DNA of 64,000 nt from Escherichia coli 042 (GTDB taxonomy: Bacteria; Pseudomonadota; Gammaproteobacteria; Enterobacterales; Enterobacteriaceae): the NCBI RefSeq assembly GCF_000027125.1, contig NC_017626.1; one strand, written 5' to 3'. The notes beneath the pieces were generated by a model. It was not told the origin of the DNA and searched no databases. It saw only the letters and a list, made by a program, of their open reading frames with translations. This document shows, in pieces, positions 18,813 through 53,122 of the stretch. The translations under genes and the position numbers were made by a program. Every line of letters begins with the position of its first letter. Position 1 is the stretch's first letter.

Positions 18813-19039
18813 GCGTCAATACGGTGCTCCGTTGACGCTTACGGAAATATAGGGGCAAATCCAATTTATTCGCAAGTAAAATGCCTGATAAAATACACGA
18901 ATCTAGTAATCATCAATATTTACTCTGGTCGAATGACGCGTGAAGTGGACGGCCAACAGACGCAGTCAGTGATCTACAGCCTGTTGAATAAAACCCCGGA
19001 TGCTTCCCCCGATTCTGCAAGTAATACTTCGGTTATTTG

Positions 19040-45221: not shown

Positions 45222-46607
45222 TTATTCAGCTGGCAGTGCTATGCGCCACGGAAGCAGTTCGCTGACCCGGTTGACCGGCCAGTCTGCTATGACGCCAAGC
45301 ACATGGCGAAGGTAGCTTTCTGGATCCACGTCATTCAGTTTGCACGTCCCGATCAGGCTGTACAGTAGCGCTCCCCGCTCACCACCATGGCCAGAGCCGA
45401 AGAACAGGGTCTTCATCTTTTCACGCAACCAGCTTTCCAGGGATTTCAACAGCGGTTTCGTTTTTCGCTGACGTTCAGCAAGCCGCTGCTCTGCCGGCAT
45501 TCCCCTTATATCCGCCTCTATGGCGTACAACTGACCGATCTGCTCCAGGGCTTCTTCCGTCAGTGCTGACGGGATGCGGACGTGCACATCGTGGATCTTT
45601 CGGCGGGCATGAGCCCAGCAGGCAGCTTCCGTTATCCCACCATTGCGATACAGCTCGTTGAACCCGGCGTACGCATCCGCTTGCAGCACACCGCTGAAGC
45701 AAGCAAGATGAGTCTGCGGATGGATGCCTTTTCTGTCCGGGCTGTAAGCGAACCACACTGCAGGTGCCAACGCTGACCCGGCATTGCGGTCATCACGAAC
45801 ATACGCCCACAACCGCCCGGTCTTCGTCTTCTTATTACCCGGCAGCAGTACCTGGACCGGGGTATCATCGGCATGGAGTTTGCCGTCAGTCATGACATAG
45901 CCATGAAGCGCCTCTTCCAGCGGAGACAGCAGCCGGCAGCATGCATCCACCCAGCCCGACAGCAGTGAACGGCTCAGCTCCACACCTTGCCGGCCGTATA
46001 TTTCTGACTGGCAATACAGCGGGGTGTGCTCTGCATACTTCGAGGTCAGCACGCGGGCCAGCAGCCCCGGTCCGGCGATACCCCGCTCGATGGGCCGCGA
46101 AGGTGCAGGTGCCTGCACGATGGTATCGCACTGAGTACAGGCATGTTTTTCCCGTACCGTCCGGATAACCCGGAAGGCGCTACGCATCAACTCCAGCTGT
46201 TCGGCGGTATCCTCGCCCAGATAGCTCAGTGAACCGCCGCAGTTCGGGCAGCACGGCGCCGCAGGCAACAGTCGCTTTTCGTCACGGGGTAGTGATTCAG
46301 GGAACGGCTTACGGGTGCGGGTCTGACGCAACGGACGCTGTACTGCCGGGTCATACACCCTAACAGTCAGCGTATCGCTCTCTTTCTGAAGCCGGTTCAG
46401 ATCGGCTTCCATTTGTGCGATACGGCGGGAGACTTTTTCGGAACGACTGCCGAAGTTCATCCGGCGGAGTTTATCCAGCTGCGCCTGCAGATGGTCTATT
46501 TCGCGCTCCCGGTTGCTCAGCTTTTCCTGCAGGGCGTGGATCAGCGCTTCCTGTTCGGCCAGGCGCTGTTTCAGCAGGAAGATGTCGTCAGAAGAGATGT
46601 CGTTCAT
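45222..46607 (-). CDS. tnpC: IS66-family transposase TnpC (461 aa, ~76 aa shorter than copy 1)
   Basis: CCPNCGGSL...CTQCDT zinc motif and DDE core; region between ...[11 protein letters not shown] and ...[11 protein letters not shown] is shorter than in copy 1. Confidence 0.8.
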
Positions 46608-46656
46608 AAGCCCGTATTTTACCGGGCTTATTCTGTGACAACCAGGATAAAGAGAT

Positions 46657-47004
46657 TTACAGCATGGTCAGGGAGGTCAGCAGCCGCTTGGGCTGTCGCC
46701 AGTCGATACCTTCCAGCAGCATCGCCAGCTGCGCCTGCGTAAGGAACACTTTGCCATCACGGGCTGACGGCCAGGCGAAGCGCCCACGCTCCAGCCGTTT
46801 GGTCAGGAGGCACAGTCCGTCACCGGTGGACCACAGCAGTTTAACCTGACTGCCGCTGCGGCCCCGGAAAATGAAAATATGGCCGGACATGGGATCGTCT
46901 TTCAGCGCCGTTTGTACTTTCGCAGCCAGGCCGTTGAAGCTATTTCTCATATCGGTGATACCGGCAACCAGCCAAATTTTGGTCCCGGAAGGTAACGGGA
47001 TCAT
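46657..47004 (-). CDS. tnpB: IS66-family TnpB
   Basis: [26 protein letters not shown]... Confidence 0.85.
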
Positions 47005-47381
47005 CGCTTCAGTTCCTGTATCAGCAGAGTCAGGAGCTTTTCGCTGACATTGCCATTGAAGCGGAGCGTCCCGTGCCGGAACGTTACCTCACAGCTGATA
47101 CTGAGGGTTTCCGGGTCCTCTGCGAGCGATTCTGGCTGTTCGGCAGCTGCATCGAGAGTCACAGGAAGTAGCTGGGGGCTCTCTGAAGAAGGTAATAGCA
47201 GCTTTCCCTCGCGCCATTGTTGTCGCCATTTGAACAACAGATTGGCGTTAATGCCATTTTCAAGAGCAAGTTTTGAGATGGATATCCCGGGTTCACAGGA
47301 GGCAGCAACGAGCAGCTGTTTAAATTCGGGAGGATAATTAGGGAAGCCTTTTCGCCTGCCGGGAGTCACATTTTTCTGCAT
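47001..47381 (-). CDS. tnpA: IS66-family TnpA
   Basis: ...PEFKQLLVAASCEPGISISKLALENGINANLLFKWR...; start placed at ATG 47379-47381. Confidence 0.8.
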   Translation of the reverse strand: MQKNVTPGRRKGFPNYPPEFKQLLVAASCEPGISISKLALENGINANLLFKWRQQWREGKLLLPSSESPQLLPVTLDAAAEQPESLAEDPETLSISCEVTFRHGTLRFNGNVSEKLLTLLIQELKR

Positions 47382-47473
47382 ATCTGACACTTTGGTTCCC
47401 ACTACTTATTTGGTGGACACCACTTTGTCTAATTCGTCAGATTCTGACCAGACGGTTCAGGCTGTACGCTTAC

Positions 47474-47579
47474 CACTATTTTATCCCTGTTGAATTTGGT
47501 TAAGCCGGTGCAGACGCGCCGGGAAACGCACACCTGAACCGGCACAATAAAATACAATACAACCCCCTGTTACTGGAGA
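47474..47579. repeat. 106-bp repeat, copy 2 (copy 1 at 19040-19145)
   Basis: Abuts the IS66-family left end at 47473. Confidence 0.8.
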
Positions 47580-47735
47580 TACGAATGGAATGACGAGGCA
47601 GCCTGTCAGTCACAGGGGGCTGTTGGCATAAAATCAACGGAAAGGCCACCAACACCGGAATTAAGCTCCACAGTCCCCGCACTGGCAATCCATTCCCGGG
47701 AAAGGCATCACCGCAAACTGCTCCGGAGGCAACCA

Positions 47736-48170
47736 TTACAGCCTCTGTAACGGATTATCAGCCCTGGCATCTTCCGACGGCACCTCCTGCCGCCCCCACG
47801 CCCTGCTGTATACCCCGGTACCGCAGCGTGGGCAGCACTTTTCCCCCTCATAATCTTCGTCACACATCACACAAAACCACTTTCTCACCTTCACCGTATA
47901 ATCCGGAACCGTCATGCCCTGCAGATGCAAACGACGGGCCTCTTTCTCTGCCGGGTCAAGCCAGGTACATCGCAGCAGGATTTTTTCAGCGACAGTCATC
48001 TGGTCATGTTCAAACCACGGTGGTTGTCCGTCATTGCCCCGCTGAAGTGTTAACGGGCATCCACAGGACACACAGCACAAAACGTCCTGTCGGTTGTGCT
48101 TCGCAGCTTCTTTCGCCGTAACAAAATGGCCTTTGCTGTCATTCGCCATATAACAGTTCAGAATTCGCAT
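47736..48170 (-). CDS. Cys-rich putative zinc-binding protein (paralog B, ~144 aa)
   Basis: MRILNCYMANDSKGHF...CCVSCGCPL...PWFEH...WFCVMCDEDYEGEKCCPRCGTG; ATG at 48168-48170 preceded by AGGAGG; overlaps stop of paralog A by 13 bp. Confidence 0.6.
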   Translation of the reverse strand: MRILNCYMANDSKGHFVTAKEAAKHNRQDVLCCVSCGCPLTLQRGNDGQPPWFEHDQMTVAEKILLRCTWLDPAEKEARRLHLQGMTVPDYTVKVRKWFCVMCDEDYEGEKCCPRCGTGVYSRAWGRQEVPSEDARADNPLQRL

Positions 48171-48565
48171 ATTTCCTCCTGAGTTGTCCGGGGAATACTG
48201 AATCCTCCGGTCTGGCAGTGTGTGCAGTACTGCTCCCCATAATAATCGTGGTGACATTGTCTGCAGTGCCAGCTGGCTTTACGCACCACGGGTAAGGCAT
48301 CCGGTACGAATTGCTGCAGACGTTTAATCAACTGTATTTCTCTGCGCTCCGGCCTGACATAAGGGCACTGTTGACCGTGCTCTGTCAGCCTGTCGTCAGT
48401 GTGTTCAAACCAGGGAAGTTCAGTTTCGTATTGCGGATGGTATCTGAGTGCACTGCCACACAAGTGGCAGGTGTAGTTAGCATAAGGTGCGGCCTGTGCA
48501 GTACGGGCGCCCGTCAGACGTCCGTTGCCATCAAGAGCGATAAAGGATTTTGCGTACATAGTCAT
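48158..48565 (-). CDS. Cys-rich putative zinc-binding protein (paralog A, 135 aa)
   Basis: MTMYAKSF...CHLCGSAL...PWFEH...WHCRQCHHDYYGEQYCTHCQTG; same motif architecture as paralog B. Confidence 0.6.
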   Translation of the reverse strand: MTMYAKSFIALDGNGRLTGARTAQAAPYANYTCHLCGSALRYHPQYETELPWFEHTDDRLTEHGQQCPYVRPERREIQLIKRLQQFVPDALPVVRKASWHCRQCHHDYYGEQYCTHCQTGGFSIPRTTQEEICEF

Positions 48566-48818
48566 ATACCTCAGCCGCCAGACGACACGCAGGCAACAGC
48601 CGTCCCGGTACGGGCAGCGTGGTCAGGGTGTGAATGGCGGTTCAGTTAAAATCTGGACTGGAGTTTGGGTAAAGCAGGCTGGTTGCTGTTACAGCACTGT
48701 GGTTGTCACACAATGGAACACTGACGTAAAAAACAGTCAGTGGGCGAGTGGATACATCGTTGCTGCCAGACAACAACCCATACTTTTGGTTTGCCGGATA
48801 TTGGCGCGCCAGTCGTGC

Positions 48819-49424
48819 TCAACTCCGGCTACAGCCAAAATTGCGCTCACCGGTGCAGTGAGCTTTGGTATGCTCCTTCGCCAGATAGTCAGCACGTTCC
48901 AGCACTTGCTGAAAGCCGGTGTCATCATTACGCGCCAGCCACACCGCCGGCCAGGCCGGAAAATGCACCAGCGTGGCATGGCACCCGACATCCACTCCCA
49001 GGGCACTGCACCACGCCTGTTTAATCATCCCGGCCAGAGACTCCGGAGCGCGGTAATCACCGGCACGACACCAGGTATCCCGGTTGACCAGCAGCATCAG
49101 GTGATAGTGTTTTTTACCTTTGCACTCCCCAAACTCCCGGGCCCAGACGTAATGCAGGGTTGTGGGATGCACGCGTTTACCTTCCCGATGCTTACGTTTC
49201 TGGTAAGCGTCGATTCGGGCTTTCAGGGCATTGATGAAGCGGGATATCACAGCTGCGTCCGTTGCTGCCGGTACATCCGGGAGACGCAGGTCAACCCGCA
49301 ATGCCGTCAGGCGGGGATGAACATTCAGTGCGTGCCGCACCGTCTCACGAATACGTTGCTGCCAGAAGGGGTTGTATTTGTAGGTCATGGTTAAATCTCC
49401 GTATGGTTCATACGGAATAGCCAC
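48819..49424 (-). CDS. Hypothetical protein (201 aa); possibly inovirus Gp2-like family (tentative)
   Basis: Supplied ORF MAIPYEPYGDLTMTYKYNPFWQQRIRETV...; upstream of the Cys-rich pair on the same strand. Confidence 0.5.
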   Translation of the reverse strand: MAIPYEPYGDLTMTYKYNPFWQQRIRETVRHALNVHPRLTALRVDLRLPDVPAATDAAVISRFINALKARIDAYQKRKHREGKRVHPTTLHYVWAREFGECKGKKHYHLMLLVNRDTWCRAGDYRAPESLAGMIKQAWCSALGVDVGCHATLVHFPAWPAVWLARNDDTGFQQVLERADYLAKEHTKAHCTGERNFGCSRS

Positions 49425-49586
49425 GTCGTAAAAAATACGCAGAGTCCCTGAAGTGACCTCCGGCAGGACACTGTCTCAGGCACTCTGTGATAACCCGAAC
49501 GGTCGTCTCCGGACTGACGGTTGAATTTTCAGCGTCGTTTTTTAATGTAAAAAACCGGTTACGGGTAAGGCTGTGAGGAGGGAGTG

Positions 49587-49787
49587 ATGGTGATACGCAA
49601 AAAGAAGTGCAGGGACTGTGGAAACGCGATTACTCATAATACAGTGTGTTGCCCGTATTGTGGTTCTGTCGACCCCTTCGGCTACTACCGGAATACAGAC
49701 CGTATCGTTACCATACTGCTGGCGCTGATTATTGTGGTCCTGCTGACTACTGTCAGCGTCAGTGTGTGTATACTGTGTAGCTGGTGA
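49587..49787 (+). CDS. Small zinc-ribbon membrane protein (66 aa)
   Basis: CRDCGN...CCPYCGS followed by one hydrophobic helix IVTILLALIIVVLLTTVSVSV; GGAGGGAG SD before ATG 49587. Confidence 0.45.
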   Translation: MVIRKKKCRDCGNAITHNTVCCPYCGSVDPFGYYRNTDRIVTILLALIIVVLLTTVSVSVCILCSW

Positions 49788-51016
49788 GATAACGGTTCAT
49801 GTATCCCCTGAGCTGACAGTGTACCGTGTATATTAAGCGTAACCGACAGGTTCTCCTTCATACCATATTAAATTTTCCAGGGATTGCCGCTGCCTTATTT
49901 CGTCCCATACAGGAAAACTCATCTGGGTTTCTGACAAATACGCGAAACTCACAGCCCCTCAATATCAACCACACGTTGTAAGCCGGTAATACCTGAAAAT
50001 CAGCCTATTACCGCCCACGCCTCCGGCACCATTCCCTTTTGATTTCGAATTCTTTGTTGTCGCTATACCGCTTAATGTTCCCGGTCCTCCGGTGCAGATA
50101 ACACCGGAGTCATCGTAGCGCTGCTTCAATATTCAGGTGACATATTTCCAGACGGAAGCCGGCGCGCGATCGTAAAGTTTGTTCATTGTCAGTTCTGCCA
50201 GCCGGTTGTCAACGGCAGAGTTAAAGGCTTCCAGCTCCGCAAGGGTAAGTTTATAACGCGTGTGGGAATTCACTTTTCCCGCGTCTCCTGACGTATTACG
50301 GGCTGCCACTTACCAGGTGTCCCGCAATACAGCCTTAGTGTTCCGTTATCGGGGATCCGGACGCACCGCAACAACCGGGGAAGTATTTCTGGTTTAGAGC
50401 AGTGTCAAGAGGGATTTCTCAGCCCCTCACTCACCGGCTCAGTCTCAGGGCAGGAGCATTAATACGCTCAGTTCATGTCTTATACAGGAATGGGCACAGG
50501 GGGAGCTGGCGTGTCACTGCTGATTTTACGCATCAGCGTTCATGTATCTGCACTCTGATACATGAACGATTCACAGCGCTCTGTTACCGGAGAGATTTAC
50601 TCTCTTAGCTTACTCTGGCAAATCCTTTACGTTACTCTCTGATGACTTCTTATATTTATAATACCAATCAGACAGCCTTATCCCATCGGTGATATCAGTC
50701 TCCTCCTCGCCAGGAACGGGCTGACTCACTGTAACCACCTCCGAAAACAACTCTGCAATTATCAGAACGCCTGCTTCTCTCCCTGTCCTCACGAAAACTA
50801 TCCCCTCTTTATCGCGCGTGCGTGCGGAAGCATCTTTTCGCAACAACCACCCGGTATACCGGTACGGCTCAGCCACCGCAACCTCCCCGTTTATCTCCTG
50901 GCGGTCACATTCCCGATTATTTTTTACGTTTCTCCCCGGTTGTTATGCCGGTGAAGGTGGCGCGCTGTTTTCATGACCACACCGGCTGGTTTAACAACAT
51001 CCGGAGGAACATTCTC

Positions 51017-51223
51017 ATGGCTACCCCAGTTTCACTGATGGATGACCAGATGGTCGACATGGCATTTATCACTCAACTGACCGGCCTGACAGATAAGTGG
51101 TTTTACAGGCTCATCAGGGATGGGGCCTTTCCGGCTCCCATCAAGCTGGGCCGCAGCTCCCGCTGGCTGAAAAGTGAAGTGGAAGCCTGGCTGCAGGCGC
51201 GTATTGCACAGCCCCGCCCGTAA
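51017..51223 (+). CDS. alpA: AlpA-family prophage transcriptional regulator
   Basis: MATPVSLMDDQMVDMAFITQLTGLTDKWFYRLIRDGAFPAPIKLGRSSRWLKSEVEAWL; GGAGG SD 9 nt upstream. Confidence 0.8.
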   Translation: MATPVSLMDDQMVDMAFITQLTGLTDKWFYRLIRDGAFPAPIKLGRSSRWLKSEVEAWLQARIAQPRP

Positions 51224-51311
51224 TTTCTGACCGTTATCCGTTCACCCGCAGCAGACGTAATCCCCGGCCTGCCGGCGGCATTCTGCTGCCTGTTATATCC
51301 CCGTGAGGAAT

Positions 51312-51920
51312 ATGAAAATGAAACAACAGTATCAGACCCGCTACGAATGGCTCCACGAAAGCTACCAGAAATGGCTGACCGGCTTCACCCGGCACGCCGT
51401 ATCCTGGGGCGTGTGTCATCCGAATATCTACTACTTCCATAATCTGACGCCCGGTTGGGTGTCATTCAATGGTGAAAAACCGGAGATTGCCATCGTACCC
51501 CAGAGCCTGCACCGGCTGATTTATGGCCCTGACAAACGGGCCACGCCGCCCCTGGATGATGATCTGATTGTGAATTTATGCACCAGTGAACATCTGCTGG
51601 TTCATCATCCGATGCTGGAAGGCATTCTCCTGTCTGAATGTGAACGTCTGAGGCAGCGTTCTCTGGCAAATAAACTGATCAGCCTCTTCCGTCAGTTTGG
51701 TGGCACGGAGTTGCGCCTCAAACTGGTCTGGCTTTGCTGGCTTGATTTAATGACCGGAAACAGCCTTGAAGACTGGAAAGAGAACCTGAAACGGAAATCA
51801 GAAAAAGAGCTGGAGGAATGGATCATCAACCGTCAGAGGCAGAGCGCAGCACTGACGGATCTGATGGATCAGTACGTGCTCCTGGCATACCGCACAACGG
51901 TTGACGATAGCCGCAACTGA
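51312..51920 (+). CDS. Hypothetical protein (~203 aa), island cargo
   Basis: Supplied ORF; start codon among clustered ATGs at 51312-51320 is uncertain. Confidence 0.45.
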   Translation: MKMKQQYQTRYEWLHESYQKWLTGFTRHAVSWGVCHPNIYYFHNLTPGWVSFNGEKPEIAIVPQSLHRLIYGPDKRATPPLDDDLIVNLCTSEHLLVHHPMLEGILLSECERLRQRSLANKLISLFRQFGGTELRLKLVWLCWLDLMTGNSLEDWKENLKRKSEKELEEWIINRQRQSAALTDLMDQYVLLAYRTTVDDSRN

Positions 51921-53122
51921 TGCCGGTTGCTTCCGGAAGGTGTGACAAAATACGGAAATGATGATGCTCCCGGCCCTGCATGCTCACCTGCAGAGCGTGT
52001 TCGTCGTCATCATACTGAGCCATGACGGGCGTCTTAAGGGCATCCTGTCATTGCTGAGCAGGCAACACCACCAGAGGAGCCACGGACAGGGATGTTCTTT
52101 ACAGCCCGATACACGCCAGGTTCTCAGCAGACTGAATGTGCAGGTGCGGTTATTCACCAGAAATGGCATGCTGCGGTACATACCCATCCTGGTGACAATA
52201 TGTACGTGGCGACAGCGATCCCGGCACTGTGGAAGAGACTCACTCAGCCTGCAGGATATTCTTTCCGGCATCCGGGAATGTCCGCCTGAATGCAAACAGG
52301 ATGATATTTGAATCCGTAATACTGTTCTTTCATCATAAATAATTTATGCAGATACAGTTAACCGTTACAGTAGCCGGTTTGTTTTACCGGGAAATAATAT
52401 CCGTCAGACTGATGCCGGAACATATCTGAAACACGTTATGATGTTTTGTTATCAGAAATGTTGTATATTCTTATCCGTGGCGACAGTTTAATGCCCTCTG
52501 GTATCACCTTGGATAATGCATATCCTGCGATGATTCGTTATATTTACGGGACACGCCTCTTTTCATTGTGCTCCTTTTCAGACTTCATTTTCCGTAAGTG
52601 TTCCCCGGCATAAAGGAGGTACCTTTCTGGCGTTTATAACTCTCTTTATCGGTGACGCCGGTAATACAGGGAATACCACACCGACAAACGAGGTATTAAC
52701 AGACGATATTTCAGTGTCCATAATTTTTCTGTCCGGTTAAATAACGTCAGTCTGCTGCCCTCTGACTGTAATCATCAAAGCCGGAATGCATACCGGGTTA
52801 CAACGTAAAAAAAGTGATGCTGGCCCCCGGTGCAGCTGGCGGGCGAAACATGTTTACCTTTCAATACCCCCTGTCTGCAGTCTCCACTCTTCCATCCTCT
52901 TAAGCTACGTCGGCCACATGAGTGCACTTCCATGATAACAGGTATTCCTGTCAGCATAACGAAGCTGGTTACCTTCCCTTCCTCCTGCATTTCCTGTCAG
53001 AATGACTGTACAGCGCGCAGATTGCCTTTTTATTGACCACCTTAATATACCATTATAAACTTCTTTTTATCATGTTATTATCACCTTATTATGTTTAATT
53101 TTTAAGCAGCCGGAGAAAGGGG

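Follow-up and report, generated by a model that had tools for sequence, protein, structure and literature searches.

Paired zinc-finger proteins encoded with a predicted HUH endonuclease in AlpA-associated islands of Enterobacterales

We describe a three-gene unit on the minus strand of Escherichia coli 042 (NC_017626.1; positions are those of the window, the whole 64,000-nucleotide stretch analysed), formed by a predicted HUH endonuclease (gene A) and two tandem zinc-finger paralogues, ZnB and ZnC. Our preferred explanation, held tentatively and with a little less than even confidence, is that the island HUH nickase has ZnB and ZnC as accessory or targeting subunits, used in replication or single-strand transfer. 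The basis of this model is a set of domain homologies, the HUH fold and motifs of gene A, linkage of the genes across genera, fusion of the zinc module to a catalytically dead HUH domain, and purifying selection. The zinc unit is already catalogued and very common, yet uncharacterised; its Pfam names (PF25165, DUF7828; PF11682, Zn_ribbon_11, formerly DUF3279) carry no function and were used in no paper found, and literature searches returned no experiment or publication on the family.

Results

Layout and prevalence of the unit

Gene A occupies 48819–49388 (minus strand) when read from the RefSeq ATG at 49388 (189 aa), or 48819–49424 (minus strand) from an alternative GTG at 49424 (201 aa). 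The initial annotation took the longer form and missed the HUH identity; that open reading frame exists, with its GTG start, but the 189-aa product is likelier because the ATG and a GGAG 8 nt 5′ of it are both conserved in orthologues. ZnB, the B-type paralogue (48158–48559, minus strand, 133 aa, beginning MYAKSF), and ZnC, the C-type paralogue (47736–48170, minus strand, 144 aa, beginning MRILNCYMAN), follow. Since 259 bp separate the coding sequences of gene A and ZnB, we go no further than calling a single transcript for all three genes plausible. Beyond ZnC lies a probable operon terminator on the same strand (47559–47623; inverted repeat I1, a terminator-like match), a long hairpin with 17-nt arms and then a T-rich run, with a predicted fold of −32 kcal/mol (z −1.85). 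A 78-aa open reading frame at 47500–47736, overlapping the ZnC stop in a TAATG, was set aside: the terminator-like hairpin falls within it, and none of the loci has a homologue.

RefSeq annotates an alpA-family regulator at 51017–51223 on the plus strand. The unit had been described as upstream of alpA, which holds for the neighbourhood, with the correction that alpA lies at a distance of about 1.6 kb and in divergent orientation. An hha-family regulator is also found near the unit in the window, and IS66 flanks the E. coli version.

E. coli chromosomes such as that of JE86-ST05 match the region at 100% identity, and the JE86-ST05 copy of the island is near a tRNA-Leu gene. Of 5426 complete E. 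coli genomes, 2696 (about half) carry at least 80% of the 2.2-kb unit, frequently at more than one site: among E. coli genomes with any match to the query, the median number of matching places is 2.

Gene A is a predicted HUH endonuclease

Pfam matches assign gene A to the YagK/YfjJ (‘inovirus Gp2’) family. The protein carries an HUH motif, HYHLML, with HYH at residues 94–96, and a catalytic motif formed by Y168-x2-K171; E, HxH and YxxK are invariant among 18 homologues, and the protein qualifies as an HUH/Rep fold. These features identify gene A as an HUH endonuclease of single-stranded DNA with predicted nicking activity. It is short and single-domain, without a helicase or origin-binding extension. 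A PDB sequence search with gene A gave nothing significant, comparison with PHROGs gave a match to an unknown-function family alone, and NCBIfam gave no match for gene A, ZnB or ZnC.

Gene A resembles the inovirus gpII-type initiators, SIRV Rep, parvovirus NS1/Rep and pMV158 RepB in its HUH fold, HxH and YxxK motifs; unlike these initiators and relaxases, it is a gene of an integrative island, neither phage nor plasmid. We know of none of these HUH systems that uses paired zinc-finger partners. In Pf prophages, an AlpA-family excisionase controls an inovirus-type initiator gene, and the presence here of an alpA-family gene beside an inovirus-type initiator recalls that arrangement. The HUH transposases of IS91/ISCR and Helitron elements carry an N-terminal zinc-binding domain, but these zinc modules are unrelated in sequence to ZnB and ZnC, which have no match to the Pfam IS91 or Helitron zinc domains; gene A also differs from those enzymes in its single catalytic Tyr motif, and we identified no transposon ends.

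ZnB and ZnC share a two-part zinc-finger architecture

Both small proteins are full-length members of one family. ZnB matches DUF7828 at 5.5e-31 and Zn_ribbon_11 at 8.6e-9, ZnC matches them at 9.3e-31 and 1.7e-18, and all 36 aligned relatives match both. Across these 36 sequences C33, C36, H55, C100, C103, C113 and C116 are invariant and C68 nearly so; this invariance suggests two zinc sites per protein, one CCHC (C33/C36/H55/C68) and one C4 (C100/C103/C113/C116). The shared architecture is a CoiA_N-like CCHC finger within DUF7828, then a C4 ribbon (Zn_ribbon_11). The motifs originally noticed (CxxC, PWFEH and W-x-C-x2-C...C-x2-C) are all present, whereas the proposed set of eight cysteines gives way to seven cysteines and one histidine. 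The AlphaFold2 model of ZnC has a pLDDT of 89, and in a Foldseek search of AFDB50 all 50 matches listed are apparent family members. This is a small family, restricted to Enterobacterales. ZnB and ZnC found nothing in PHROGs, and PDB sequence searches with the family gave nothing significant. RefSeq labels members ‘putative zinc ribbon protein’ or ‘zinc-ribbon domain-containing protein’, and some UniProt members are mislabelled ‘DNA-directed RNA polymerase beta subunit’ or ‘Competence protein’.

The N-terminal finger aligns with real CoiA_N sequences (PF25164) with an hhalign probability of 90% (E 1.6e-6, 51 columns), and 10 of the 36 family members give weak, sub-threshold Pfam CoiA_N matches. 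CoiA is an endonuclease that cuts DNA structure-specifically, its substrates being single-stranded and D-loop DNA, and it has a putative zinc finger at its N terminus (bioRxiv 10.1101/2024.02.06.579203). The proteins share a strand-CxxC-...-(P)xF(A/E)H pattern; CoiA differs in its PD-(D/E)XK nuclease domain (PF06054) and long C-terminal region and in its restriction to Bacillota, whereas ZnB and ZnC lack a nuclease domain, carry an additional helix and the C4 ribbon, and occur in Enterobacterales only. At 133 and 144 aa and with no PF06054 match, they therefore stand outside the CoiA family. From the homology of the two fingers we infer nucleic-acid binding by ZnB and ZnC. Their pI values are near-neutral (6.7–6.9; family median 7.8), so that their charge is not obviously that of DNA binders and protein binding fits at least equally well.

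The CoiA likeness also bears on a different proposal, in which the zinc proteins are not partners of the nickase and would act after nicking as single-stranded-DNA-binding or priming-type factors, coating displaced strands or marking the start of the complementary strand. The single-stranded and D-loop substrates of CoiA favour it, as does a very basic mini zinc-ribbon open reading frame (42–50 aa) that accompanies the zinc genes in 10 loci. We nevertheless consider it distinctly unlikely, given the absence of any likeness to SSB folds and of any sequence or fold similarity to primase (DnaG, T7 gp4 type) or initiator zinc-binding domains, a kinship that the initial annotation had named as grounds for refuting its reading; moreover, the domain found fused to the zinc module (below) has an HUH fold and is neither polymerase nor primase.

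Two other resemblances were discarded. The CxxC...PW.EH pattern matches a BIR domain at E 1.5, which we take as chance or as convergent CCHC geometry. An HNH or His-Me nuclease centred on WFEH is contradicted by the alignment, where E54 is variable and no residue other than F53 and the presumed zinc ligands is invariant.

Both paralogues are old, coupled and under purifying selection

ZnB and ZnC are 30% identical by BLASTP (E 3e-15), more than expected by chance, which together with their shared DUF7828 and Zn_ribbon_11 matches bears out the original description of tandem, translationally coupled Cys-rich paralogues. The coupling region (48158–48180, minus strand) is also as first described: the ZnB stop (TGA, 48158–48160) and the ZnC start (ATG, 48168–48170) give a 13-bp overlap, and an AGGAGG (48175–48180) sits within the ZnB coding sequence, 4 nt 5′ of the ZnC ATG. 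An identical overlap occurs in 10 other loci (L007, L008, L011, L013, L014, L022, L023, L026, L027 and L031). ZnB falls in a B-type clade represented in 10 other loci and ZnC in a C-type clade, both old and kept across genera.

One alternative is that a duplication in a decaying island left one or both paralogues behind without function. Its support comes from the many truncated database entries and from the E. coli version, which is flanked by IS66 and has lost two genes of the fuller module (a dead HUH paralogue and the mini open reading frame; see below). In comparisons with unsaturated dS, however, dN/dS is 0.11–0.44 for ZnB and 0.08–0.37 for ZnC, indicating purifying selection on both, so that neither has decayed. 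Both retain every zinc ligand, the two clades and the 13-bp overlap persist across genera, and the cluster of intact 144-aa ZnC sequences has 2076 members. The idea of a decayed duplicate, against which the pair was originally to be checked, is thus largely refuted and scarcely credible.

HUH genes accompany the zinc genes across genera

The informative loci come from about 15 genera, and nearly all of them have an HUH gene 5′ of the zinc gene or genes on the same strand; the pattern extends to Salmonella, Klebsiella, Budvicia and a Klebsiella plasmid. In some loci the upstream HUH protein belongs to a divergent clade that is weakly recognised, by HMM or by motifs. The exception is one locus (L020), whose zinc gene has no HUH gene within 6 kb upstream. 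A fuller module runs HUH, alpA, mini zinc ribbon, ZnB, ZnC and a catalytically dead HUH paralogue, so that in these other genera alpA sits between the HUH gene and ZnB; the window alpA is 61–65% identical to those of two such loci (L007 and L031). The dead paralogue lies 3′ of ZnC in at least 9 loci. At least one metagenomic protein, P0180, joins a zinc module to a dead HUH domain; this domain matches the neighbouring active HUH protein at E 5e-23. The E. coli version has neither the dead paralogue nor the mini zinc-ribbon gene, and for this reason, as well as the 259-bp gap, its link to HUH may be looser. A search for a decayed alpA or dead HUH gene adjoining the E. coli operon found none. 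AFDB also contains a 466-aa protein similar to P0180, a candidate further case.

The module beside alpA stays constant while the neighbouring cargo varies, which is core-like behaviour, and the placing of an unknown-function pair in an island mobility or replication neighbourhood holds up. In Klebsiella the cargo next to the unit comprises a type I restriction-modification system and an SduA_C-domain (Shedu-type) protein; in K-12, AbpAB and RnlAB adjoin yfjJ.

Such defensive neighbours raise the alternative that the three genes are themselves a conflict module (defence, anti-defence, exclusion or addiction), in which, for example, the HUH enzyme would cut incoming replicons of single-stranded DNA, and ZnB and ZnC would detect the invader or inhibit the enzyme. 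The unit borders variable and often defensive cargo, a dead HUH paralogue could serve as a decoy or inhibitor, and near-neutral ZnB and ZnC could be protein binders. The unit itself nonetheless remains constant as cargo changes, the family is absent from 50,697 phage genome records, and PADLOC-DB 2.0 gave no matches for gene A, ZnB, ZnC or three neighbouring open reading frames; we regard a conflict module as an improbable reading.

A conserved hairpin overlaps the ribosome-binding site of gene A

Upstream of the HUH gene, a hairpin (TCCGTATG-AAC-CATACGGA; 49398–49416, minus strand) has a 3′ arm that overlaps the GGAG ribosome-binding site. The hairpin folds in all 10 orthologous loci, with the same (T)GAAC loop and three stem sequences bearing compensating changes, as judged by folding each sequence separately and not by a formal covariation count. 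It occurs once in the window. Its role may be to control translation, to act as an operator or to be recognised by the HUH enzyme. An Rfam search of 47000–52500 gave no matches. We rejected TTTTTTACG as a repeated site: its 5 matches, against 1.3 expected, were equalled in 2 of 100 shuffles, which is not significant.

The hairpin also raises the question whether ZnB and ZnC are instead zinc-finger regulators of transcription or translation, acting on alpA, the HUH gene or cargo, possibly through this element, and taking no part in HUH catalysis. That the conserved palindrome covers the ribosome-binding site of the HUH gene, that zinc genes lie directly 3′ of alpA in other genera and that an hha-family regulator is nearby would all suit such a role. 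Fusion to an HUH-fold domain would, by contrast, be unexpected for a free-standing regulator; neither protein has a helix-turn-helix domain or similarity to a known regulator, and their charge is near-neutral. Regulators of this kind therefore seem unlikely to us.

Discussion

Returning to ZnB and ZnC as subunits serving the island nickase, we envisage gene A, ZnB and ZnC as part of an AlpA-associated mobility and replication core of CP4-57-type integrative islands in Enterobacterales. Translational coupling would yield ZnB and ZnC at a fixed ratio, and the two would form a heteromer, which would dock on the HUH-fold domain, on structured or single-stranded DNA, or on both. Docking would target or restrain HUH nicking at an island site, and from the nick the excised island could be copied by a rolling-circle mechanism or transferred as a single strand. 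Within this scheme we infer zinc binding, the heteromer, its contact with the HUH enzyme or DNA, and the biological outcome. We know of no CP4-57-type island that uses rolling-circle replication or its own relaxase, which counts against the model.

A bolder version is more doubtful. Here the three proteins would form an unrecognised zinc-finger-assisted nickase machine that provides CP4-57, SRL and leuX-type islands, the commonest class of pathogenicity and fitness island in E. coli and Enterobacterales, with a rolling-circle replication or relaxase-like single-strand transfer system of their own; the fuller form would add the mini zinc ribbon and the dead HUH protein, and the upstream hairpin would be a control or recognition site.

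Little is understood of how these islands spread, since the usual view of them is as ‘cryptic prophages’ with just an integrase and AlpA. If the unit is a working nicking machine, the islands would gain an autonomous replication or mobilisation step that is directly testable, HUH enzymes would gain a new type of accessory factor, and DUF7828 and Zn_ribbon_11 would gain a function. If ZnB and ZnC are simple regulators, the finding is of routine interest. The CP4-57 and CP4-44 regions of K-12 contain yfjJ only, with no ZnB or ZnC match or remnant in either, which may be why the unit has gone unstudied.

The unit belongs to the conserved core of islands with virulence, resistance and defence cargo, among them the SRL island of Shigella flexneri. 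There, orf34–orf41 include a phytase-like esterase, IS66, hypothetical orf38, the YfjJ/‘inovirus Gp2’ protein orf39, Hha and Vis/AlpA, and the zinc-gene position is listed just as ‘no similarity / hypothetical protein’ (PMC6980539). The SRL island and the window have the same gene order.

A putative operon of an HUH endonuclease and a zinc-finger pair

The putative minus-strand operon opens with gene A (48819–49388; YagK/YfjJ family, 'inovirus Gp2'), whose 189-aa product is an HUH endonuclease with predicted enzyme activity; its ATG has a GGAG 8 nt upstream, and a GTG start at 49424 gives an alternative 201-aa reading. On the same strand are the small Cys-rich paralogs ZnB (48158–48559, 133 aa) and ZnC (47736–48170, 144 aa). 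As the initial annotation described, ZnB and ZnC share 13 bp at their junction and an AGGAGG lies inside ZnB; this AGGAGG stands 4 nt before the ZnC ATG. A long hairpin and T-rich run 3' of ZnC (47559–47623, minus strand) looks like a terminator. An IS66 copy (tnpA, tnpB and tnpC; 45222–47474, minus strand) begins ~260 bp beyond ZnC; the boundary near 47474 was placed where matches to other genomes stop. In strain JA0072, which lacks this copy, the operon directly adjoins an ilvN pseudogene and a DeoR-family gene.

ZnB and ZnC share 30% identity (E 3e-15), and both match Pfam DUF7828 (about 1e-30) and Zn_ribbon_11 (formerly DUF3279). RefSeq names them 'putative zinc ribbon protein' and 'zinc-ribbon domain-containing protein'; some UniProt/AFDB entries, such as B7MMF4 and A0A2C6DNN4, are labelled 'DNA-directed RNA polymerase, beta subunit/140 kD subunit', 'Competence protein' or 'Ybl85', which looks like propagated annotation error. 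The family is small: only 277 relatives emerged when 1.84 billion representative proteins were searched exhaustively with a profile. One species-level genome scan and one protein search place every credible member in the Enterobacterales, in genera including Escherichia, Salmonella, Klebsiella, Citrobacter, Enterobacter, Cronobacter, Serratia, Siccibacter, Rosenbergiella, Mixta, Budvicia and Limnobaculum. Across 36 diverse members C33, C36, F53, H55, C100, C103, C113 and C116 are invariant and C68 nearly so, a pattern that points to a CCHC site plus a C4 ribbon in each protein, in place of the eight-cysteine assignment first proposed. Both proteins are near-neutral (pI 6.7–6.9), and the gene A product is basic (pI 9.7).

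The paralogs form two separate clades, B-type (MYAKSF...) and C-type (MRxLKCYLAN...), each present in many genera. The same 13-bp overlap recurs in ten other loci, and dN/dS where dS is unsaturated (0.11–0.44 for ZnB, 0.08–0.37 for ZnC) is near gene A values. On these three counts neither is a decayed duplicate, an outcome the initial annotation had raised, and it is very improbable that the pair is decaying.

Linkage and fusion to HUH proteins

Almost every informative locus has a same-strand HUH gene, its motifs intact, immediately upstream of the zinc gene(s); some of these HUH genes fall in a divergent clade. A fuller module outside E. coli, reconstructed from locus L007, a Klebsiella plasmid locus (L031) and the loci with a mini ORF, runs HUH – alpA – mini zinc-ribbon ORF – ZnB – ZnC – dead HUH paralog, and is closed by a DUF2913 gene in at least L031. 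Ten loci outside E. coli carry the mini ORF (42–50 aa, for example MEKQRRTKPQNIPARWKCPRCRRQYCGARPCPVCFR...), with alpA on one side of it and ZnB on the other (L007, 5320–5454; L031, 6322–6456; also L008, L011, L012, L013, L014, L016, L017 and L023). The mini ORF encodes a basic product, combining a basic tail with a Zn_ribbon_11-type ribbon, and has no annotation in the RefSeq plasmid record.

The dead HUH paralog, encoded after ZnC (L007, 6496–7044; L031, 7493–8059; L026, 10861–11403), has 21–26% identity to the gene A product and no longer has the Glu, either His or the Tyr-Lys motif; it is an 'inovirus-type Gp2 protein' in RefSeq and UCP030791 in Pfam. One metagenomic protein, P0180, joins a zinc module to a dead HUH domain (HYH to FLH, Tyr to Met) that matches the neighbouring active HUH protein at E 5e-23, in the order alpA – HUH – fusion. 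A 466-aa Serratia protein in AFDB is similar and may be a second fusion.

The E. coli form is reduced relative to other genera: neither a dead HUH paralog nor a mini ORF was found in it, the latter being absent from the window. The initial annotation placed the genes upstream of alpA; in E. coli alpA lies 1.6 kb away on the opposite strand. At 18939–19004 (minus strand), adjoining the end of another IS66 copy, a weak 22-aa match to the dead HUH N-terminus (64% identity, E 0.002–0.011) could be either what is left of a second module or chance.

A finger domain in common with CoiA

Weak Pfam CoiA_N matches occur in 10 of 36 zinc-family members. Against a profile built from retrieved and aligned CoiA_N-containing sequences, the N-terminal finger scored 90% probability (E 1.6e-6, 51 columns), aligning the leading strand, CxxC, and PWFEH with CoiA PHFAH. 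Profile comparison thus supports real homology of the two fingers. A structure-specific endonuclease, CoiA resolves the D-loop of transformation, and its N terminus bears a putative zinc finger (bioRxiv 10.1101/2024.02.06.579203). ZnB and ZnC lack its nuclease domain and, by sequence, are not CoiA family members but have one domain in common with it.

The best-supported reading, which we hold tentatively, is that ZnB and ZnC act with the HUH nickase in island DNA processing, probably as a heteromer. Homologies, fold, linkage, fusion and selection are its observed steps, and zinc binding, the heteromer, its contacts and the biological outcome its predicted ones. The pair would bind an HUH-fold domain, structured DNA or both, and rolling-circle copying or single-strand transfer of the island could follow AlpA-driven excision. 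A role as single-strand-binding or priming factors is improbable. The unit would be an HUH nickase module whose pair of zinc-finger partners is unusual. The raw observation is not new, because these very common genes are already catalogued, with annotations as unknown-function domains; our literature search found no paper on systematic zinc–HUH gene coupling, the dead paralog, the zinc–HUH fusion, the CoiA_N homology or the mini ORF.

Prevalence and island setting

Several complete E. coli chromosomes match positions 47500–49700 at 100% identity. Of 5,426 complete E. coli genomes, 2,696 contain at least 80% of this 2.2-kb query (median two matching places, maximum seven, in genomes with any match). 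The zinc genes occur in 32 of 72,556 plasmid records and matched none of 50,697 phage records; among the matches listed, the distant ones come from large plasmids of Klebsiella type, of which the one inspected (L031) holds the whole module. The JE86-ST05 unit is ~46 kb from a tRNA-Leu gene; IS elements and integrase fragments are abundant in that region, which we take to be a large mosaic island.

The unit sits within a conserved backbone (alpA and a 200-aa partner, a YfjP-type GTPase, DUF932, an antirestriction gene, RadC and CbeA/CbtA), adjoining variable cargo. A function in defence or conflict is unlikely. The Shigella SRL island has the same gene order, with the zinc-gene position entered as 'no similarity' (PMC6980539). 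As in that island, an Hha/YmoA-family nucleoid-associated regulator gene (50133–50309, minus strand) separates the HUH operon from alpA. The 200-aa gene directly 3' of alpA (51318–51920, plus strand) has 61% identity to a same-position Salmonella gene, recurs in Klebsiella and carries no recorded Pfam match; it looks like a conserved alpA partner, as yet uncharacterised.

A hairpin upstream of the HUH gene

A conserved hairpin (49398–49416, minus strand) lies just upstream of the HUH gene beside a T-rich block (49424–49435, minus strand). Its (T)GAAC loop is constant, and its stems differ among E. coli, Siccibacter-type loci and Rosenbergiella with compensating changes; because the conserved bases occupy different reading frames in different loci, the element is non-coding. 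In 10/10 loci the GGAG ribosome-binding site shares bases with the 3' arm, and the hairpin could sequester that site or serve as an operator or HUH recognition site. That ZnB and ZnC are purely regulatory is as doubtful as a defence role; the probability left by all four alternatives and the HUH-partner reading belongs to some explanation not considered. Divergent from the HUH gene, a 67-aa ORF (49584–49787, plus strand) encodes a CxxC...CxxC zinc ribbon and a hydrophobic tail that is probably membrane-spanning; it is 'hypothetical' in RefSeq, with weak matches to PHROG families of unknown function.
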